Virus record (IMG/VR): IMGVR_UViG_3300021255_003269
Span: 735-64,734 of that record
Reading direction: 5' to 3' (one strand)
Length of the DNA: 64,000 nt
DNA from: a virus
Taxonomy: Duplodnaviria > Caudoviricetes
The notes under the pieces are model-generated. The model saw only the letters and a program-made list of their open reading frames with translations, was not told where the DNA came from and made no database searches. Below are positions 3,436 through 28,749 of the stretch, piece after piece. The translations under genes and the position numbers were made by a program. The stretch's first letter is position 1. Every line of letters begins with the position of its first letter.

Positions 3436-4713
3436 TCAGGCGTTTTCGTCGCTTCGCTTTTCATTTTTTACGAAACCTGTCACACTTTTGGGTTTTGAGC
3501 CTCCAATAAAGGCCGATTCGTTAAAGTTTTTCTTATTTTTCAATGCCCTGGCCATCGCCAAATCGATCTTGCTATCGCTTGTCAAATAATAGTAATATAA
3601 ATCATGATAGGCGGTGTTCAATCTGTCGATCCTGCCAGCTGCCTGCACCATTGTCTTATAACTATAGTTTTGACTATAGAATATAACAGTGTCCGTTTCT
3701 ATGCAGTTCCAGCCTTCGGCTCCGGCAGTGTATTGTACAAGATAGGCCCATCGTCCACCAGTTGGCAATGGCTCATGTTTCTGTCCGTTCCATTCTGCAA
3801 ATGGCCAATTAATGTTTAATAACGTTTCTCTGAGAATGTCCAGCTCATAGTTATAGTTATAGAATATAATTGCACGACGTTTTTCGAACAATATCCTGGT
3901 TATGGAGTTTGCCCGTTCCGGATCGGAATTAACGATCCTCCGCAAGGTATAGCACAACTCTGAAGCTTCTTTGATCGGCTCTTCTGTGTAAGGATTAAAA
4001 CGATGTTTCATTGCAATATCATACAAAGCTTTGCTGTATCCTGTTCTGATCGTCATACTATGGGGGACCGTGCTCTTTTCGAATGACATGCCTACAAGAA
4101 TACTATCACGAAACTTCTCCAATTGCTTTATGTTGCAATATCCACGGATCTGAGGGTACCTTGTGTTGAATCGGTTGTAAATGACATACAACCTCTGAAA
4201 CTCCGTTTTATTCTTAACAAAACCATTGGCTATGAACACTGGTAGATAGTCCATCCAGCAATCTCCTGGAGTGGCACTGAGCAATATCCATTGGTTTCTG
4301 GCTGTGATCTTTAAAAAAGCCTTTGTCCAAGCGCCATAACCAACAACGCGTTGCTCATCAAATATAAAAAAGCATCCTGTAATGGATGTATATTTTTTAA
4401 TATTATTCCAGCTGTCAATTGCCACATGTGCGCCTTTATAACTAGCAGAAGGGTCTGTACTGAGTCCGAATCTGGCGCATTCTCCTTCCCATTCAAAGGT
4501 GTCACGTTTTCTGGCAGTGGTGATAATATAAAGGTCTTTCGGTTTACGCATATTCTCGCAAACTTTGTTGAAATAATAGGCGAGACCCGTTATACTTTTG
4601 CCACTGCCCGTTCCGCCCCAAAGGATCGAACCATTATGCAATCTGTCAAGAGCTGCTTTCTGATGTTCAAATAACTGCATAAAGTGTGGAGAGCGAAGAA
4701 TATCACTCTTCAC
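3436..4713 (-). CDS. SF2 (SNF2-like) helicase
   Basis: Walker A GGTGSGKS, FDEQ, SATP, AGAEGWN and QAAGRIDR motifs. Confidence 0.9.
   Translation of the reverse strand: MKSDILRSPHFMQLFEHQKAALDRLHNGSILWGGTGSGKSITGLAYYFNKVCENMRKPKDLYIITTARKRDTFEWEGECARFGLSTDPSASYKGAHVAIDSWNNIKKYTSITGCFFIFDEQRVVGYGAWTKAFLKITARNQWILLSATPGDCWMDYLPVFIANGFVKNKTEFQRLYVIYNRFNTRYPQIRGYCNIKQLEKFRDSILVGMSFEKSTVPHSMTIRTGYSKALYDIAMKHRFNPYTEEPIKEASELCYTLRRIVNSDPERANSITRILFEKRRAIIFYNYNYELDILRETLLNINWPFAEWNGQKHEPLPTGGRWAYLVQYTAGAEGWNCIETDTVIFYSQNYSYKTMVQAAGRIDRLNTAYHDLYYYYLTSDSKIDLAMARALKNKKNFNESAFIGGSKPKSVTGFVKNEKRSDENA
3470..3492 (+). repeat. 23-bp exact inverted copy of origin iteron 9614-9636
   Basis: ACGAAACCTGTCACACTTTTGGG is the reverse complement of 9614-9636. 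Confidence 0.9.
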
Positions 4714-5294: not shown

Positions 5295-8200
5295 TTAATT
5301 ATCCCATGGTAAATCAATTTTTGGGTTTTGAGGGTATGGAGCATCGCTGACGAACAAATCAAAAGGCCCAAACTTCTCTATTTCAGCTTTGGCTTCCGCC
5401 GTTCGTTTATCATAGTAGCTACGATCCACCTGGTCTTCCAAACCAAGCTCCCGGACCACTTCGTACTCTTTCCAGCGATATCCTTTTGCGCCATTGGCGC
5501 TGTCATATTTACCTTTATTCTCTCGGACAAGTTCACCGCCATTGCAACCAGGCTTAATCGGGCAGAACGCTCCGCACTTTCCAACGAACACATAATTGTG
5601 CTCATCTTTGCTCAGGTTTTCGTTCATATCCAAATATAAAGCCGTCGTTACGCTATTGACTTCGTACATGTCCTCAAGAGTGATCGGCTCATGTGTAAAC
5701 AGTGTCTTGAACAGATAGCTGTCTTTGAACCAATCTCCGGTTTCAGTCCATTCTCCACCATGATCGTAAAGATCACTTGGAATATAACCATACTTGGCCT
5801 CGGCAGCCTCTTTTGTGTCATACCTGGCAACATAGTCTGCTTTTGTGATCAGGCACATCCGCTCATATGTCGCTTCATGCTCAAAGGTATAGCCATACAG
5901 TTTTCCATAGTCCATGACAAACTTAATAATATCAGGCGTTGCATTCGGGATCTTGATAGAGTCTGTCTTAATATGAGCGACAGTGAATCCTCTCTGCTGC
6001 ACTTCATGCTTTAAGTTGATCATGAACAACGCTCCGCGTTTTGCGACAATGTTATCCACATTCCGTTTATCGCGGAACGGATTATCAAACTTGGCGCTGG
6101 TCAATCCGTATACCGAGTTGATGGCTATCTTAAGTGCCCCTGACAAAGCCTTCGCCTGTTTAGGATCGTTCAGATACTTAGTGAGCTTTCCGCCAAACAG
6201 TTCCTTTGCTTTGTCATATTCTTTGTGCTTAATGTAGATACGAGCCTGCAGAATATCATCAAAGTTCTTAGTATACTCTCCAAGCAATTGCTCAGCTTTC
6301 AGACTATGCGGATGCATGGAAGCAATATCAAGCAATGCCACATTACAGTGAATGCCTGGCTCGGAGTATACATAGCCGCCTTCGCCAACTTCCTCGCCAC
6401 GATATATGCTGGCATAGTATGGTTTCTTTAATGGTAATCCGGATTCATCGGTGGTTATCTGCTTATACTCGTATTTTGGGAACACAGGACGCCCAAGAGA
6501 ATCGAACATCGTCCACTCAGGATCCAAGCCCATCTCGGCCGGTCCGTGTGTGTAGTTCTCAAGCGGTTCGGTAATAGCACCCATGTTTCGGTAATTAAAC
6601 TTACTTTGAGGATGTTTATCATCGCCAAATATAATACGAGTTGTCAGACTGTTTGTTGTAGAGTTAACGCTCATTCCAGCAATATCCGCCAGAATCTGAC
6701 GTGCCGTCCAGTCTGCCTGGCGATCTTCAGAGAAGAACAGAGCTTCAGTGGCAAGCACGTCGTTGTCGCAATAAGCAGCCACTTCCGTCCATTTATCTTC
6801 GGGAACTGGTTCGTTCCATGGCATGCCAAGTTCCTTATGGTGAATGCCCAAGTCGATCTCAAACTTCTTCAAGCTTTGCTTTTTGCTTGAGAAATCGAGA
6901 ATATCCGTCAGACTATAATCCCATGCTTCCCGAAAATAGCCAACACCATTTTCAATAATATCACGACTGACCTGATAGACACGTTCTGGTGGGTAACCAA
7001 GCCGAATGGCATGAAGAATATGATTGTCATACTTCCTGCAGTTAAAACCAATCAAATCATACTTAAGTAATTCCTCAATATCAGTTGGCTTCGGATTGAT
7101 CATGCGAACCACTTTGTTTTCTGGTCCGGCGATCTTCCAGTTGACCATGTTGACATTAGGGAACACTTCAATATCAAAGAACACGATCACACCCTTATGC
7201 TCTGTCGCGATTGGTGTGCTGGCGTCCTGTGACATCCACTTCATCTTTCTGACCAGATCAGTGCAATATCTTTTGTTGTTGGTGCTGCCCATAGCAAAGC
7301 TATAGACCGAAGAACGGAGTCTGCTTACATCATAGTGCTTTCCGCTGTCGTAAGCCTGATCCAGGATCATCTTGATGTAATCGCAGCTCGACTTGGTGCT
7401 CGGGCAGCTATCGATCTCCTTTCTCATAGCTTTATTGATGCAGTTTGTTAGATACCGCTCAATCTCAACAACAGAAATATCTATCATGTTGTTACTCTTT
7501 TCTTTCTTTGGCTTCTGGGGGAGACCACTGGAAATGGTCGCTATTGGAATATCATTACAGTAACTCAGCTTTCTTCTGATCGGAGCTTTTCCACGAAAGA
7601 CTTTGACCTCTACATTTTTGGCATAAAGCGAGAGTAAGGTATCCGTGTCACCTGTATACCTGTAATATAAATGAACGCCAGCTCCACTTTTACTGAATTC
7701 AGCATAAGTCGCTGGCCATTTACTGGCGGCATCCAGATTCAGTTGTGCGTCTTTCTCGCCTTTTTCATTTTTCAAATCAAAGTCGATCATGATCAGCCAT
7801 TCCGGAGGCAGAATATAATGAACTTTGGAAGTGTCCAGGTCTTTCAGTGTTGTTTTGACTTTGTTCCAGGACACCATTCCATCTTCATACTGTGCTTTGC
7901 AATCCTTCAGAATATCATCGAGCAAGCTCTTTGTGCAACTCAATTTGGGAGAATCGTCGACTACCTTCTCAGGTTCTGCACTTTTGCTGTCAGATTCTTC
8001 GCCACTAAGACAATTCTTCTTGAACCCTGTGTACCAGCTTCGAACCTGTACACCATTTACTCTCGTAACTGGAAGAAAGCTGTCGAAATAGTTCTTCAGT
8101 TCATCGCCAAACTTATGCCTCGGATACGCTTTCCTTGTGCGGTCGTCAATGCCAGCTTCGTCGCAGAATGTATTCCACATACTGAACGCATTTTTTAGAC

Positions 8201-25134: not shown

Positions 25135-25503
25135 TCAATTGTCGTAATACACCATTCCAATCATTACGTCAGGATATCTTTTCGCTCTTGCATAAATCCT
25201 TACATTGTCACGTCCACATTCTTCGACAGCTAAATTAAGTCCATAACTGTTTCGCTTAGTAATATCTCTTGCCAGGTCATTCATCTTAATGCTCACGAAT
25301 TTCTGATAGCTGTGGGGTCTCGGTCTGTCATCTCTGACCAGTCGCAACCATTCCATTTTCCACATATCTTTCTTATTTCGTGATTCCTGAATGAGAGCAA
25401 ATCTTAAATCGTAATACTCGCGTACTAAATTGTTATATTCTTCTTGTGAAATCTGTCTCGATTGAGTCCATTTCCATTTCAGTTTTTCTAATAAATTGCT
25501 CAT
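25135..25503 (-). CDS. Hypothetical protein in a promoter-terminator cassette
   Basis: Start re-called at MSNLLEK after SD GGAGG. Confidence 0.7.
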   Translation of the reverse strand: MSNLLEKLKWKWTQSRQISQEEYNNLVREYYDLRFALIQESRNKKDMWKMEWLRLVRDDRPRPHSYQKFVSIKMNDLARDITKRNSYGLNLAVEECGRDNVRIYARAKRYPDVMIGMVYYDN

Positions 25504-25547
25504 GTCTATACCTCCTAATTCTGTTGCAGTACCAGACATTTTCGTCT

Positions 25548-25573
25548 TCATTATTAGGAGTGTTTTTGCCGCT
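25548..25573 (-). promoter_or_regulatory. Phage promoter motif copy 7
   Basis: AGCGGCAAAAACACTCCTAATAATGA. Confidence 0.65.
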
Positions 25574-25626
25574 GGATTCGTTTTTCCAAAAATAAAAAAG
25601 GCTGCAAGTAGCAGCCATCGATGGAA

Positions 25627-25929
25627 TTACTTTTTCTGGTATCGTCCTCGCATATCATGCAGCTTCCACATCTTGGCAATCAGTTCTTTTTCAAACTTCG
25701 TTGCCGATCCAGGTACTGCATTTAATACTTTTTGTCGTTCAGTAACCAGTTCGAGTATTTCATCAAATAAGTCATCATACTCTTTCACCTTTTCATTGAG
25801 GCAATAAATATCATCCTCCAGTTCTGTTGCTTCGTTCCACAAATTTTTAACTAGTCTTCCTTCACGCAGTTTGTTGTCTTTCTCCAAATCAACTACGATT
25901 CGTCCAATAGCATCCCAATTCGTTTTCAT
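25627..25929 (-). CDS. Coiled-coil hypothetical protein in a promoter-terminator cassette
   Basis: SD GAAAGGAG; downstream hairpin GGCTGC/GCAGCC. Confidence 0.7.
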   Translation of the reverse strand: MKTNWDAIGRIVVDLEKDNKLREGRLVKNLWNEATELEDDIYCLNEKVKEYDDLFDEILELVTERQKVLNAVPGSATKFEKELIAKMWKLHDMRGRYQKK

Positions 25930-25963
25930 GAAACAGGTCTCCTTTCAATATTTGAGTTGGTCC

Positions 25964-25989
25964 TCATTAAAGGAAATGTTTTTGCCGCT
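25964..25989 (-). promoter_or_regulatory. Phage promoter motif copy 8
   Basis: AGCGGCAAAAACATTTCCTTTAATGA. Confidence 0.65.
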
Positions 25990-26015
25990 TCTTTGGGAGA
26001 AGGCGATCGTTACTG

Positions 26016-26059
26016 CTTGGTAAGGATGAGGTCACCGGTTCAAATCCGGTCATCAGCTC
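26016..26059 (+). other. Putative attP core: 3' half of tRNA-Thr(GGU)
   Basis: CTTGGTAAGGATGAGGTCACCGGTTCAAATCCGGTCATCAGCTC comprises anticodon loop (GGT), T-arm ACCGG-TTCAAAT-CCGGT and 3' acceptor strand; the 5' half (GCTGATG, D-arm) is absent; integrase lies 1.1 kb away. Confidence 0.85.
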
Positions 26060-26230
26060 TGAGAAAGTCTGTCGGAAATGGCAGGCTTTCTTCAATTTTC
26101 AGATATGTTTTTGTGGTATTTGGTAAAAATGAGAAAAAGTGAAATGAGACGCTGGCAATTTTGCGGACGCGCAAAATAACTAAAACGCCTCATTTCACAA
26201 TCGGATGTGTATGGCTACTTTTGGCAACTG

Positions 26231-26386
26231 TCACCTTCCAAACAGGGCAAACACCAAAATGCCGACACATAGAATGACGATCCATTTCGTGGCCCTACCG
26301 AATGTTCCGCCTTTTACTTTTTCGCCAATCAGATCGATGCAAATATAAACTGCCAGCATTACAACTACGGTCACGAACTCTTTCAC
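26231..26386 (-). CDS. Cassette D: 51-aa two-TM peptide (not in ORF track)
   Basis: GTG start inside repeat R4; MKEFVTVVVMLAVYICIDLIGEKVKGGTFGRATKWIVILCVGILVFALFGR. Confidence 0.7.
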   Translation of the reverse strand: MKEFVTVVVMLAVYICIDLIGEKVKGGTFGRATKWIVILCVGILVFALFGR

Positions 26387-26413
26387 ATCATTTCCCTCGC
26401 TTTCCCAAGAATA

Positions 26414-26647
26414 TCAGAAATTGTATCTTGTATCTTTCCATTCGGTTAGTTCTAAGCCATCTCCAAAACCTGTAGATGGAAATTTGAATTCTTTTATAAG
26501 TTTTATAAGGATCTCCATTTGTTCTTTACTCAATGGTGTTGGGACTTTCAAAATATAGGGAATGCCATCGTCTTTGTCGACTCTTACCTGGCCATAATAA
26601 GGCTCTATCGAGTATTTGATCAGCTTCATCGTTTTTTCGTTTTCCAT
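26414..26647 (-). CDS. Cassette C: 77-aa hypothetical protein
   Basis: ATG overlaps the TAA of repeat R3; stop lies inside R4. Confidence 0.7.
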   Translation of the reverse strand: MENEKTMKLIKYSIEPYYGQVRVDKDDGIPYILKVPTPLSKEQMEILIKLIKEFKFPSTGFGDGLELTEWKDTRYNF

Positions 26648-26677
26648 TACATCATTTTCCTCGCTTTCTTAAGAATA

Positions 26678-26968
26678 TTAGTTCTGTTTTAGGTTGGCTA
26701 TGGTCAGCAATCCATTCCATCCCTCTGCCAATTTGTGCATGTTGTCTTCCCACTCGTCCCAAGGCGCTTGTGCTTCTGGATGATCTTTATACCATTGCTT
26801 GATTTCTTTCCACTTTTGAGCAATTATTTCTTTTGAATCAACTTCTGGATTGAATCTTATAGGACAAGTGATTGGTCTGCATTTTTCGCACAACCAGTAT
26901 TTGTCACTTACCAAAGGAGCCCCGCAACGAGAACATCGTTTTTCCATAAATTTTTGTATGTCGACCAT
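26678..26968 (-). CDS. Cassette B: 96-aa zinc-ribbon protein
   Basis: CSRC...CEKC; ATG overlaps the TAA of R2; stop lies inside R3. Confidence 0.7.
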   Translation of the reverse strand: MVDIQKFMEKRCSRCGAPLVSDKYWLCEKCRPITCPIRFNPEVDSKEIIAQKWKEIKQWYKDHPEAQAPWDEWEDNMHKLAEGWNGLLTIANLKQN

Positions 26969-26998
26969 TACATCATTTCCCTCGCTTTCTCAAGAATA

Positions 26999-27160
26999 TT
27001 AGTCGTTTTTGTCAGAAATACTTGATTTCATTTTAGAATTTGCTGGCAATGATTGGCAATCTGCAAATTTTTTGAAAAGCTCTATAAACAGTTTGATAGC
27101 AGTATCTTTTTTCATAGTTACTTCCCAATGAGTTGGAGTTGGGATCTTTTTATTGCTCAC
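26999..27160 (-). CDS. Cassette A: possible 53-aa peptide (not in ORF track)
   Basis: GTG overlaps the integrase TGA; stop lies inside R2; contains tandem TGGCAAT so it may be an att arm rather than a gene. Confidence 0.4.
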   Translation of the reverse strand: MSNKKIPTPTHWEVTMKKDTAIKLFIELFKKFADCQSLPANSKMKSSISDKND

Positions 27161-28305
27161 ATCATTTCCCTCGCTTTCTCAAGAATATCAGTTCTGTACT
27201 TAACATAACGTTTTTCTGTTGTTTCGGTTTTGCTATGACCTAATATCCGTGCAATCATGTCTAATGGCATACCATTTCCTCTCCATTCTGTAGCACAGGT
27301 ATCTCTGAAGTCATGGGCAGAATATCCTTCAAAATGAAAGTGTTTTCGGATTCTTTCGAAGGTGCGGCGTGCTGTAGAATAACATATGGGAGACTCCATC
27401 GTTTTATCCTCATCAGCATAAAGCAAGAAACCATGTTTCAGCATTGGTGAAAGAATTTGCTTAAGCTCGGGATGCAATGGAATCTTACGGATACTAGTCT
27501 TTGTTTTAGGTGTCTTAATCTCAGGTTGATTTCGTTTTGGATGAACAACCGCTCGTTGAACAGTAATCCATTCGTCATCAATATCTTCCCAACGAAGGCC
27601 AAGAACTTCTTCGAATCGCATGCCAGTATAGCATAACAGTGCAGCCATTACCTGTTCTTTTCCCGAAATATCAGTCAACCCAGCTTTGATTTCGTCCATC
27701 TTTTCTTTTGGCAAAGCTTTGTGATGGATCGTTTCATGACCACTGATCTCAATGTTTTTGCTGGCTAAAGGATTCTTTGTCAGAATATCATCCTCAACAG
27801 CGGCATCGAATACCGGATTCATAATGTTCTTAATCTTTAAGATGGTTTCTTTGGAGTAAGTCTTCCCGAGACTGTTAAACCATCGCTGGATGTCTGAACT
27901 TCTGATATGATCAATTCGTGTTGATCCAAAAGCCGGCTCAATGTGATTACGAATGATTCGTCCTCGATTGACCACGGTGTTGGATTGTTGTTTTTGCTTA
28001 AATGTTCCATAATATTCTCTGAGGTAGTCTCCAAACAATGGGCTCCTTTTATCATCTTCTATCCACTCCACAATTCCTTCATTGATCAGCAGTTTTACAT
28101 AATTGTCGAACAGCTCCTGCATTGAATATCCATGAAGCCATTTTGTTTTACCATTAACAACAACCTTCTCAGCTAATCTTTTAGGCATACTATTATCTCC
28201 TTCATGTATGCCTTCGCCCAAAGATGTGCAGTTGTCAAGATTCGCTACCAAGCTCAATAGCTGGTTAATGACCTCATCCTTATTATAAATTTTTGTGCTA
28301 TCCAT
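27157..28305 (-). CDS. int: Tyrosine integrase
   Basis: YTGMRFEEVLGLRWEDID, KT(PK), HDFRDT, LGHS and RY catalytic set; SAM-like N-terminal domain. Confidence 0.95.
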   Translation of the reverse strand: MDSTKIYNKDEVINQLLSLVANLDNCTSLGEGIHEGDNSMPKRLAEKVVVNGKTKWLHGYSMQELFDNYVKLLINEGIVEWIEDDKRSPLFGDYLREYYGTFKQKQQSNTVVNRGRIIRNHIEPAFGSTRIDHIRSSDIQRWFNSLGKTYSKETILKIKNIMNPVFDAAVEDDILTKNPLASKNIEISGHETIHHKALPKEKMDEIKAGLTDISGKEQVMAALLCYTGMRFEEVLGLRWEDIDDEWITVQRAVVHPKRNQPEIKTPKTKTSIRKIPLHPELKQILSPMLKHGFLLYADEDKTMESPICYSTARRTFERIRKHFHFEGYSAHDFRDTCATEWRGNGMPLDMIARILGHSKTETTEKRYVKYRTDILEKAREMM

Positions 28306-28317
28306 GTCAATTATTCC

Positions 28318-28749
28318 TTATAGAAAATCTCCATATACATGCCTTACATGTTTGTGATTACCTCCAGCTTTAATCACTGGAAATGAGACTTCTTGTGGTC
28401 CGTATGCTGTTATGCCAAAGCTGCCAGCATTCGGAAAACGTTTATTCTTTTGTTTTAGCTCCTTAATCTTTCGAATAAATCTATCAGGCGGAATATCACA
28501 AAGCATTTCATATAAACTGCTCTTTATGAATCTTTCGAGAGACGCTTTGGTTCTTAAACTGACCGTCATATCATCACTCTGTCGTGGCCTTACATTATCT
28601 GGATTGTCGCATACATCGTAATAGTCTCGAGCGGCCAAGGCAATAATTGCCGCAGCTAATCTTTTTGCTCCTGCGTCATTCAAATATCTGTAATTTGGAA
28701 AAGCTTCTTCAAATTCAGCCATTTCTTTGTCAACAAATTTTTGGTTCAT
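28318..28749 (-). CDS. Conserved phage hypothetical protein
   Basis: LAAAIIALAARDY motif recalled from a widespread phage family. Confidence 0.65.
   Translation of the reverse strand: MNQKFVDKEMAEFEEAFPNYRYLNDAGAKRLAAAIIALAARDYYDVCDNPDNVRPRQSDDMTVSLRTKASLERFIKSSLYEMLCDIPPDRFIRKIKELKQKNKRFPNAGSFGITAYGPQEVSFPVIKAGGNHKHVRHVYGDFL

Follow-up and report, generated by a model that had tools for sequence, protein, structure and literature searches.

The closest described parallels to the locus studied here are the mobile regulatory cassettes of T4-type phages, the promoter-early stem-loops (PeSLs) (Arbiol et al., 2010, PMC2839356; Comeau et al., 2014, PMC4122927). In RB49, ORFan192 lies between two PeSLs, whereas phi1 has one chimeric PeSL instead, and mini-circles were detected (Arbiol et al., 2010, PMC2839356). 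Our study concerns an array of small genes in a phage of the Caudoviricetes, contained in a stretch of 64,000 nucleotides (nt), hereafter the window, that covers positions 735 to 64,734 and so nearly all of the 64,734-bp IMG/VR record IMGVR_UViG_3300021255_003269. Between the tyrosine integrase gene (int) and the phage attachment site (attP), the last ~35 nt of int recur three times, and each copy of this tail, the native one included, precedes a small open reading frame (ORF). As with PeSLs, ORFans in a hyperplastic region have short repeats with expression signals on either side, here four linkers and four ORFs without a known family in a hypervariable interval. A 321-nt indel that separates the window from three near-identical phages (L119, L120 and L121), with a 46-nt overlap on the linker, reproduces the RB49/phi1 pattern, recombination between repeats is the proposed driver in both cases, and in both every gene brings its own expression signals. 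The signal carried by the linkers is nevertheless translational (a stop, a Shine-Dalgarno (SD) motif and a start), whereas a PeSL combines a sigma-70 promoter with a terminator stem-loop, and the linkers contain neither a promoter nor a terminator. It measures ~35 nt against ~100 nt, derives from the coding 3' end of an integrase gene, and is confined to one temperate-phage operon beside attP.

Other systems share parts of this arrangement. Classical morons, which are acquired by Hendrix-type accretion and carry lysogenic-conversion cargo, bring their own promoter and terminator. The cassettes of the array resemble them as small accessory genes of foreign composition, located by att at the prophage end and variable among relatives, but they lack a promoter or terminator of their own and are chained to int by duplicated int-tail linkers that contain the ribosome-binding site (RBS). 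Tandem accretion in tRNA islands also leaves copies of a gene 3' end between successive inserts; there, however, the repeated piece is the att target (the tRNA 3' half), duplicated by site-specific integration, whereas the window has a single copy of the tRNA fragment, and what recurs there is the int tail, which is distinct from the att site. The start-associated sequences (SAS) of Cluster K mycobacteriophages are a conserved RBS-containing motif directly upstream of the start codons of some genes. At ~13 bp they are scattered genome-wide, do not come from a coding tail and are not known to bound indels; the linkers likewise place a conserved RBS-containing motif before the starts of a subset of genes, but at ~35 nt and with a coding tail as their source. 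Phages have also been reported to carry parts of integrons, which belong to the classical IntI/attC kind (Qi et al., 2023, PMC9892861). With integrons the locus has in common an array of promoterless single-gene cassettes beside a tyrosine recombinase gene, with one upstream promoter and a variable number of cassettes.

We consider it probable that the extra copies of the int tail are scars of illegitimate or unequal recombination, which were kept as linkers supplying a stop and an RBS and then acted as short homologies for the loss and gain of cassettes. A 30-nt probe taken from the int 3' tail matches the window at four places, all on the minus strand, at 27159-27188 and 26970-26999 (0 mismatches each), 26649-26678 (2) and 26385-26414 (1), with an expectation by chance of 0.00 (100 shuffles). 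No further copy exists elsewhere in the 64,734-bp record, and sub-motifs of the repeat occur nowhere but at these four places, so that it does not represent the general RBS context of the phage. The first copy, R1 (27157..27191, minus strand, as are the other three), is the native tail and the source of the repeat; it comprises the last 11 codons and the stop of int and holds the SD motif and overlapping GTG start of the first ORF. It is followed by R2 (26965..27002), R3 (26644..26687) and R4 (26383..26417). The repeat derives from int and not the reverse, because many Int homologues (57-70% identity) share the C-terminus ...EKAREMM and lack an array, and because all copies bear a tail variant specific to this lineage. 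The first-pass annotation was therefore right to recognise the integrase gene's own 3' end in the repeat. Its description of the copies as separators of unrelated small ORFs, of 53, 96, 77 and 51 amino acids (aa), also held, these four ORFs being mutually dissimilar. The identical four-cassette array is found in two more assemblies, L005 (ENA) and L006 (Logan).

The tail copies are narrowly distributed. An exact-pattern scan for the repeat gave 0 matches in IMG/VR, JGI metagenomes and 185,000 GTDB species genomes, a pattern that the linkers of L119-type phages would escape, and in ~110 related loci copies with at most 8 mismatches per 30 nt occur only in the window's own lineage, apart from a candidate in L036. 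We rejected the latter, which is a different duplication of ~128 nt in the int 3' end of that locus. In this prophage of a Clostridia metagenome-assembled genome (MAG), located at tRNA-Thr, the ~128-nt duplication or insertion (L036 4990-5260) interrupts the int 3' end, repeats 25-30 nt of the int tail and the motif that follows it, and adjoins an intact tRNA-Thr(GGT). Blastn of the locus against phage GenBank genomes (INPHARED) returned a single 41-nt match, and a scan of IMG/VR with the Int protein as query found nothing. The idea that no part of int is more conserved in its nucleotides than the tail was dropped, since a sliding window ranks catalytic regions higher; a 22-nt identity of the int tail holds in one sub-clade only. 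A duplicated 'type B' unit made of copies 2 and 3 was likewise rejected, stop type and start type being unlinked in L119.

Each linker carries a compact set of expression signals. The left-edge triplet of copies 2 to 4 is the stop codon of the preceding ORF (TAA, TAA and TGA), as had been proposed, and is followed by a GAGG-type SD motif and by the start of the next ORF, which is a GTG within ATGATGTGA in copies 1 and 4 and the ATG of TAATG in copies 2 and 3. When the four linkers of the window were aligned with three from L119, the upstream-stop triplet was found to vary among TGA, TAA and TAG, changing solely from stop to stop, and the GAGG core and the downstream start were retained in all seven. 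This pattern suggests that stop, SD motif and start are under selection. The linker resembles the prevailing RBS of the genome, GAAAGGAG (16 copies against 2.9 expected), but is one base longer. The further proposal that each new gene is automatically coupled in translation to its neighbour stands only in part: the linkers do supply stop, SD motif and start, but the junctions between cassettes are ordinary RBS spacers with a two-codon remnant ORF and a stop-to-start distance of ~25-30 nt, and a true stop/start overlap is confined to int and the first cargo gene. Overlap or direct contact of the int stop with the first cargo gene (GTGA, TAATG, ATGA) is seen in nearly all members of the clade.

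The joints bear on how the copies arose. The left joints of the three extra copies lie at -34 (R4), -36 (R2) and -41 (R3) from the int stop. R3 resembles int over 7 nt more on its upstream side than the other copies do, and the last two codons of the 96-aa ORF, which encodes a zinc-ribbon protein (hereafter the Zn ORF and Zn cassette), are int-tail sequence read in another frame. The two parents of this joint, a Zn gene of the L028 type and the int tail, share just AC at the point of joining, and the parents of R2 share ACT. The 3' third of the 53-aa ORF (27006-27062) is homologous to the 3' extension of long-form Zn-ribbon genes (113-117 aa) of L027, L029 and L130, and this ORF is therefore a fusion product. 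To judge from the sequences, differing joints, microhomology of 2-3 nt and chimeric ORF ends are marks of illegitimate recombination and not of a recombinase acting at a defined site.

Comparison with relatives shows that the genes of this interval turn over. Among the ~120 related loci that we collected, the att core follows the int stop at distances of 56 to 2313 nt, and the interval, flanked throughout by one int family and one att core, contains anything from no small gene to six or more. The gene sets differ in L007, L027, L028, L029, L030, L040, L043, L092, L128 and L130: there is one cargo gene in L030; a 54-aa gene and a Zn gene in L028; genes of 62, 64 and 53 aa and a Zn gene in L029; genes of 62 and 59 aa and a Zn gene in L130; a 92-aa gene and a Zn gene in L027; a 70-aa gene and a transmembrane (TM) gene in L007, with a 94-aa gene in addition in L040; and six or more genes in L092. 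The interval from int to attP is thus a cargo slot with hypervariable contents and fixed flanks. Through a homologue of the 77-aa protein we arrived at six contigs, from a phage with 92-98% identity to the window, in which the array reads int-53-77-51. Samples that contain the two array variants are ENA ERZ12302814, SRR873598, ERZ27280412/18 and ERZ28614353. L119, L120 and L121 lack exactly the 321 nt that make up the Zn cassette plus one linker, and the blastn segments on either side of this indel overlap by 46 nt on the linker. The first-pass annotation had asked whether cassette number and identity vary while the flanks stay fixed; they do, even by one cassette plus one repeat in near-identical phages. 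An independent second case is the 190-nt cassette (a 64-aa ORF) by which L029 differs from L130, bounded by an SD-containing repeat of 8-12 nt. The body of the Zn cassette is 86.7% identical in nucleotides between the window and L028, whereas the int genes of the two are only 68% identical, and cargo genes therefore move between divergent phages of the clade. The Zn homology with L028 stops 13 nt past the ATG and 8 nt short of the stop, that is, at the linkers. Cassette turnover among relatives involves linkers of just 8-17 nt, and in L027 and L029 a stretch of 10-17 nt from each phage's int tail reappears in internal linkers, so the same process has occurred elsewhere and left shorter remnants.

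We infer the recombination pathway behind the copies from these joints. The int gene would head an operon that runs through hypervariable small cargo genes to the tRNA-Thr attP, and the end of a cargo gene on one genome copy would be joined to the last 34-41 nt of int on another copy. The joining would take place by illegitimate recombination at the level of microhomology, through unequal crossover or template switching between co-replicating relatives or sister genomes. In the simplest event giving the order cargo A, int tail, cargo B, the left parent would contribute everything through the end of its cargo and the right parent everything from just inside its int tail, a joint that would stack one set of cargo behind another. 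Surviving joints would have to keep the SD motif and the start of the downstream gene and to give the upstream gene a nearby stop, which the out-of-frame TGA at -33 in the tail can provide, and the resulting repeats would have to be short enough to escape prompt deletion, longer ones being quickly lost. The three joints would fall within 8 nt of one another because only this narrow class (SD motif kept, TGA stop, short repeat) survives. Once in place, a linker would be a portable stop, RBS and start module through which promoterless genes are translated from the int transcript; it would also be a short homology for the looping-out or re-insertion of a single cassette, and such linker-linker exchange would give the 3-cassette and 4-cassette variants.

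The resemblance to integrons makes it natural to ask whether the int tail is instead the site of this Int, or of another recombinase, at which circular promoterless cassettes with one site each are inserted. A repeat stands at each cassette boundary, one cassette plus one repeat is polymorphic, the joints cluster within 8 nt, the array lies directly 3' of a tyrosine recombinase gene and the Zn cassette is shared horizontally. We nonetheless hold this reading to be very unlikely, and the comparison does not support the proposal of the first-pass annotation that the integrase captures genes, nor capture by any other site-specific system. Integron boundaries are precise, whereas those of the array differ from joint to joint (-34, -36 and -41), with microhomology of the illegitimate type, and the ends of cassette ORFs are chimeric with the linker. 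In integrons, attC sites are imperfect inverted repeats that form a hairpin on one strand, and the array has no such folded site: no hairpin or dyad was found in the repeat, single-stranded DNA folds of the four repeats and of two bottom strands having minimum free energies of 0 to -1.4 kcal/mol (z at least 0 against shuffles), and an Rfam search of 25500-28500 gave no match. Nor does the repeat resemble in any meaningful way the att core, which is the demonstrated site of action of this Int family and lies ~1.1 kb away (8 of 10 nt are alike between the left edge of the repeat and the tRNA 3' end, which by our estimate is at chance level). Int itself scores 29.4 bits over 46 residues with the IntI model TIGR02249 (integrase_gron), for which the cut-off is 265, and is a phage-type integrase with SAM_3 and Int_M N-terminal domains, unlike the IntI subfamily, which has an extra domain; it is also the only recombinase found. 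The cassettes are downstream of int and co-directional with it, whereas in integrons they are inserted at attI beside a divergently transcribed intI. The absence of the repeat, as an exact pattern, from the IMG/VR, JGI and species-genome collections and the exchange of cassettes by relatives with linkers of 8-17 nt argue in the same direction. We see only a slim chance that the int tail acts as a true secondary site for recombination, with cTGAt as its hotspot, and that Int or an unrecognised enzyme uses it to capture promoterless genes behind int. If this were true, it would be a phage-borne form of gene capture unrelated to integrons, in which each captured gene is coupled to integrase expression.

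A more serious competitor, though still an unlikely one, is that the copies are passive scars of old accidents, the 3-cassette form being a one-off deletion between direct repeats and the repeats not taking part in further gene gain. No special mechanism is required for a deletion between direct repeats of 35 nt, and the linkers diverge about as fast as the sequence around them (the window and L119 show 8 differences over ~107 nt of linker, against 92-97% identity of the neighbouring genes). Against this, a linker-bounded indel recurs independently in L029 and L130, and the Zn cassette has clearly been exchanged between divergent phages, with homology that ends at the linkers. The preservation of stop, SD motif and start through substitutions also suggests that the linkers are at least functional in expression. 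That the array is an assembly artefact or chimera created by a short repeat seems next to impossible to us: the data are metagenome assemblies and the repeat is near common k-mer sizes, but the array is identical in three independent assemblies (the window, L005 and L006), no exact match between copies is longer than 30 nt and each flank is unique, and six other contigs carry the coherent variant.

Several observations weigh against the recombination-scar reading that we favour. Just two array variants are known, with three and four cassettes, as the passive reading would also have it, and the Zn indel may be a gain or a loss. The spread of the three joints over 8 nt is tighter than random illegitimate recombination predicts, and the attribution of this clustering to selection and to the stability of short repeats is the weakest link in our account. 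The phage genome yielded no recombinase from the families RecT, ERF and AAA_24 (Sak4-type), and the enzyme would therefore be that of the host or an unrecognised one. The 53-aa ORF may be a non-functional chimera. Lastly, translation of the four ORFs is a prediction from the signals in the linkers.

The setting of the array is that of a lysogeny module. The record is rated complete by CheckV, almost all genes of the phage genome are on the minus strand, and the window is best explained as a complete temperate phage of gut or rumen Clostridia. The int gene (27157..28305, minus strand) encodes a tyrosine integrase of 382 aa with the Pfam domains Phage_integrase, Phage_int_SAM_3 and Phage_int_M (PHROG 1), and is the sole tyrosine recombinase gene found in the phage genome. 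The attP core (26016..26059, plus strand) was assigned by its sequence identity to the 3' part of tRNA-Thr(GGT), from the anticodon loop to the 3' end; the core pattern is present once in the window and ARAGORN found no whole tRNA there. Related prophages and integrases in MAGs of Christensenellales, Oscillospiraceae and other Clostridia adjoin a complete tRNA-Thr(GGT). Public contigs of relatives from independent samples (L006, L027, L028, L030, L128 and L130) stop inside the 44-nt core, which is consistent with branching of the assembly graph between free phage and integrated prophage or host tRNA. The tRNA identity, the intact tRNA-Thr beside relatives and the contig ends within the core together make the att assignment sound. 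With int beside an attP that holds a tRNA 3' part and relatives beside the intact tRNA, the locus is a temperate tyrosine-integrase/tRNA att module, and the placing of the array between int and the tRNA-Thr attP core by the first-pass annotation is borne out. A sigma-70-type promoter with 12/12 consensus positions (28282..28310, minus strand) at the annotated int start is the likely promoter of the int-cargo operon. The first terminator-like site after it on the minus strand is at 25616-25600, and no promoter or terminator site above chance lies between the cassettes. With a consensus promoter at the int start and no terminator until 25616, int and the four ORFs therefore look like one operon.

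The cargo ORFs themselves, all on the minus strand, have no family or function in Pfam, PHROGs, NCBIfam or PADLOC, and the ESM Atlas gave weak leads only, below 0.9. Two of the cassettes have a GC content of 0.32-0.36 against 0.43 for the genome. The chimeric 53-aa ORF (26999..27160), which begins in R1 and ends at the TAA of R2, has 94% identity to its counterpart in L119-type phages; it was missed in L119 by the gene callers applied to public contigs, and in L005 all four ORFs were called. The Zn ORF (26678..26968), the cassette present or absent between near-identical phages, starts at the TAATG of R2, takes its last two codons and TAA from R3, and encodes a CxxC...CxxC zinc-ribbon followed by a helical hairpin. 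The protein is conserved in five phages, and its AlphaFold2 model is of low confidence (pLDDT 70, pTM 0.40). The 77-aa ORF (26414..26647) runs from the TAATG of R3 to the TGA of R4 and belongs to no known family. Within it, a patch of 9 residues (26560-26590, residues ~20-28) differs wholesale between the window and L119 in a protein that is otherwise 87% identical, which may reflect a compensated frameshift or a local replacement. The 51-aa ORF (26231..26386), which uses the GTG of R4, encodes a small hydrophobic membrane protein that is identical in L119-type phages despite 4 synonymous changes and has homologues in L007, L040 and L041. In a 668-nt contig of GCA_001684375.1, the 77-aa and 51-aa cargo genes are adjacent, and this contig could point to a host or isolate that carries the prophage.

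Two further sequence features of the module concern the integrase. Part of the att core (26021-26034) has an exact inverted copy of 14 nt at 28269-28282, in int codons ~8-12, where the copy directly abuts the -10 box of the perfect sigma-70 promoter. It is kept at the same place, with 0-2 mismatches, in L119, L027, L028, L029, L007, L040, L041 and L092, relatives in which int is only ~68% identical, and is absent from L030 and L043. This 14-mer may be an Int operator for autoregulation or a partner in long-range RNA pairing, and its presence also makes it worth asking if M1 is the start of Int or if the conserved M40, which is preceded by an SD motif, takes that place. A TTGCCAA/TTGCCAG pair marks the boundary between cargo and P-arm in several relatives (L007 ~6490-6510, L040 ~2900-2915 and L128 ~4225-4245) and is found in the window at 27043-27059 (inside the 53-aa ORF) and, near the core, at 26221-26227 and 26152-26158. 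These are candidate arm-type Int sites, a reading clouded by the genome-wide enrichment of the heptamer (46 copies against 25 expected).

On present evidence, the array does not represent a new class of recombination system, but joins repeat-bounded modular shuffling with the accretion of morons. The locus shows, nearly step by step, how a temperate phage accretes promoterless accessory genes: a duplicated piece of a coding tail has turned into a reusable linker that supplies a stop and an RBS, together with a short homology for cassette turnover. Repeat-mediated modular shuffling, described for the promoter-terminator motifs of lytic T4-type phages, is thereby extended to linkers of a translational kind, located in the lysogeny module of uncultured Clostridia phages. 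The locus is, moreover, a small and well-defined system in which the shortest homology that supports gene turnover could be measured. The interval between int and attP stands out as a natural cargo slot of this clade, and its genes are likely to be expressed in lysogens, where exclusion, anti-defence and membrane effects are candidate roles.

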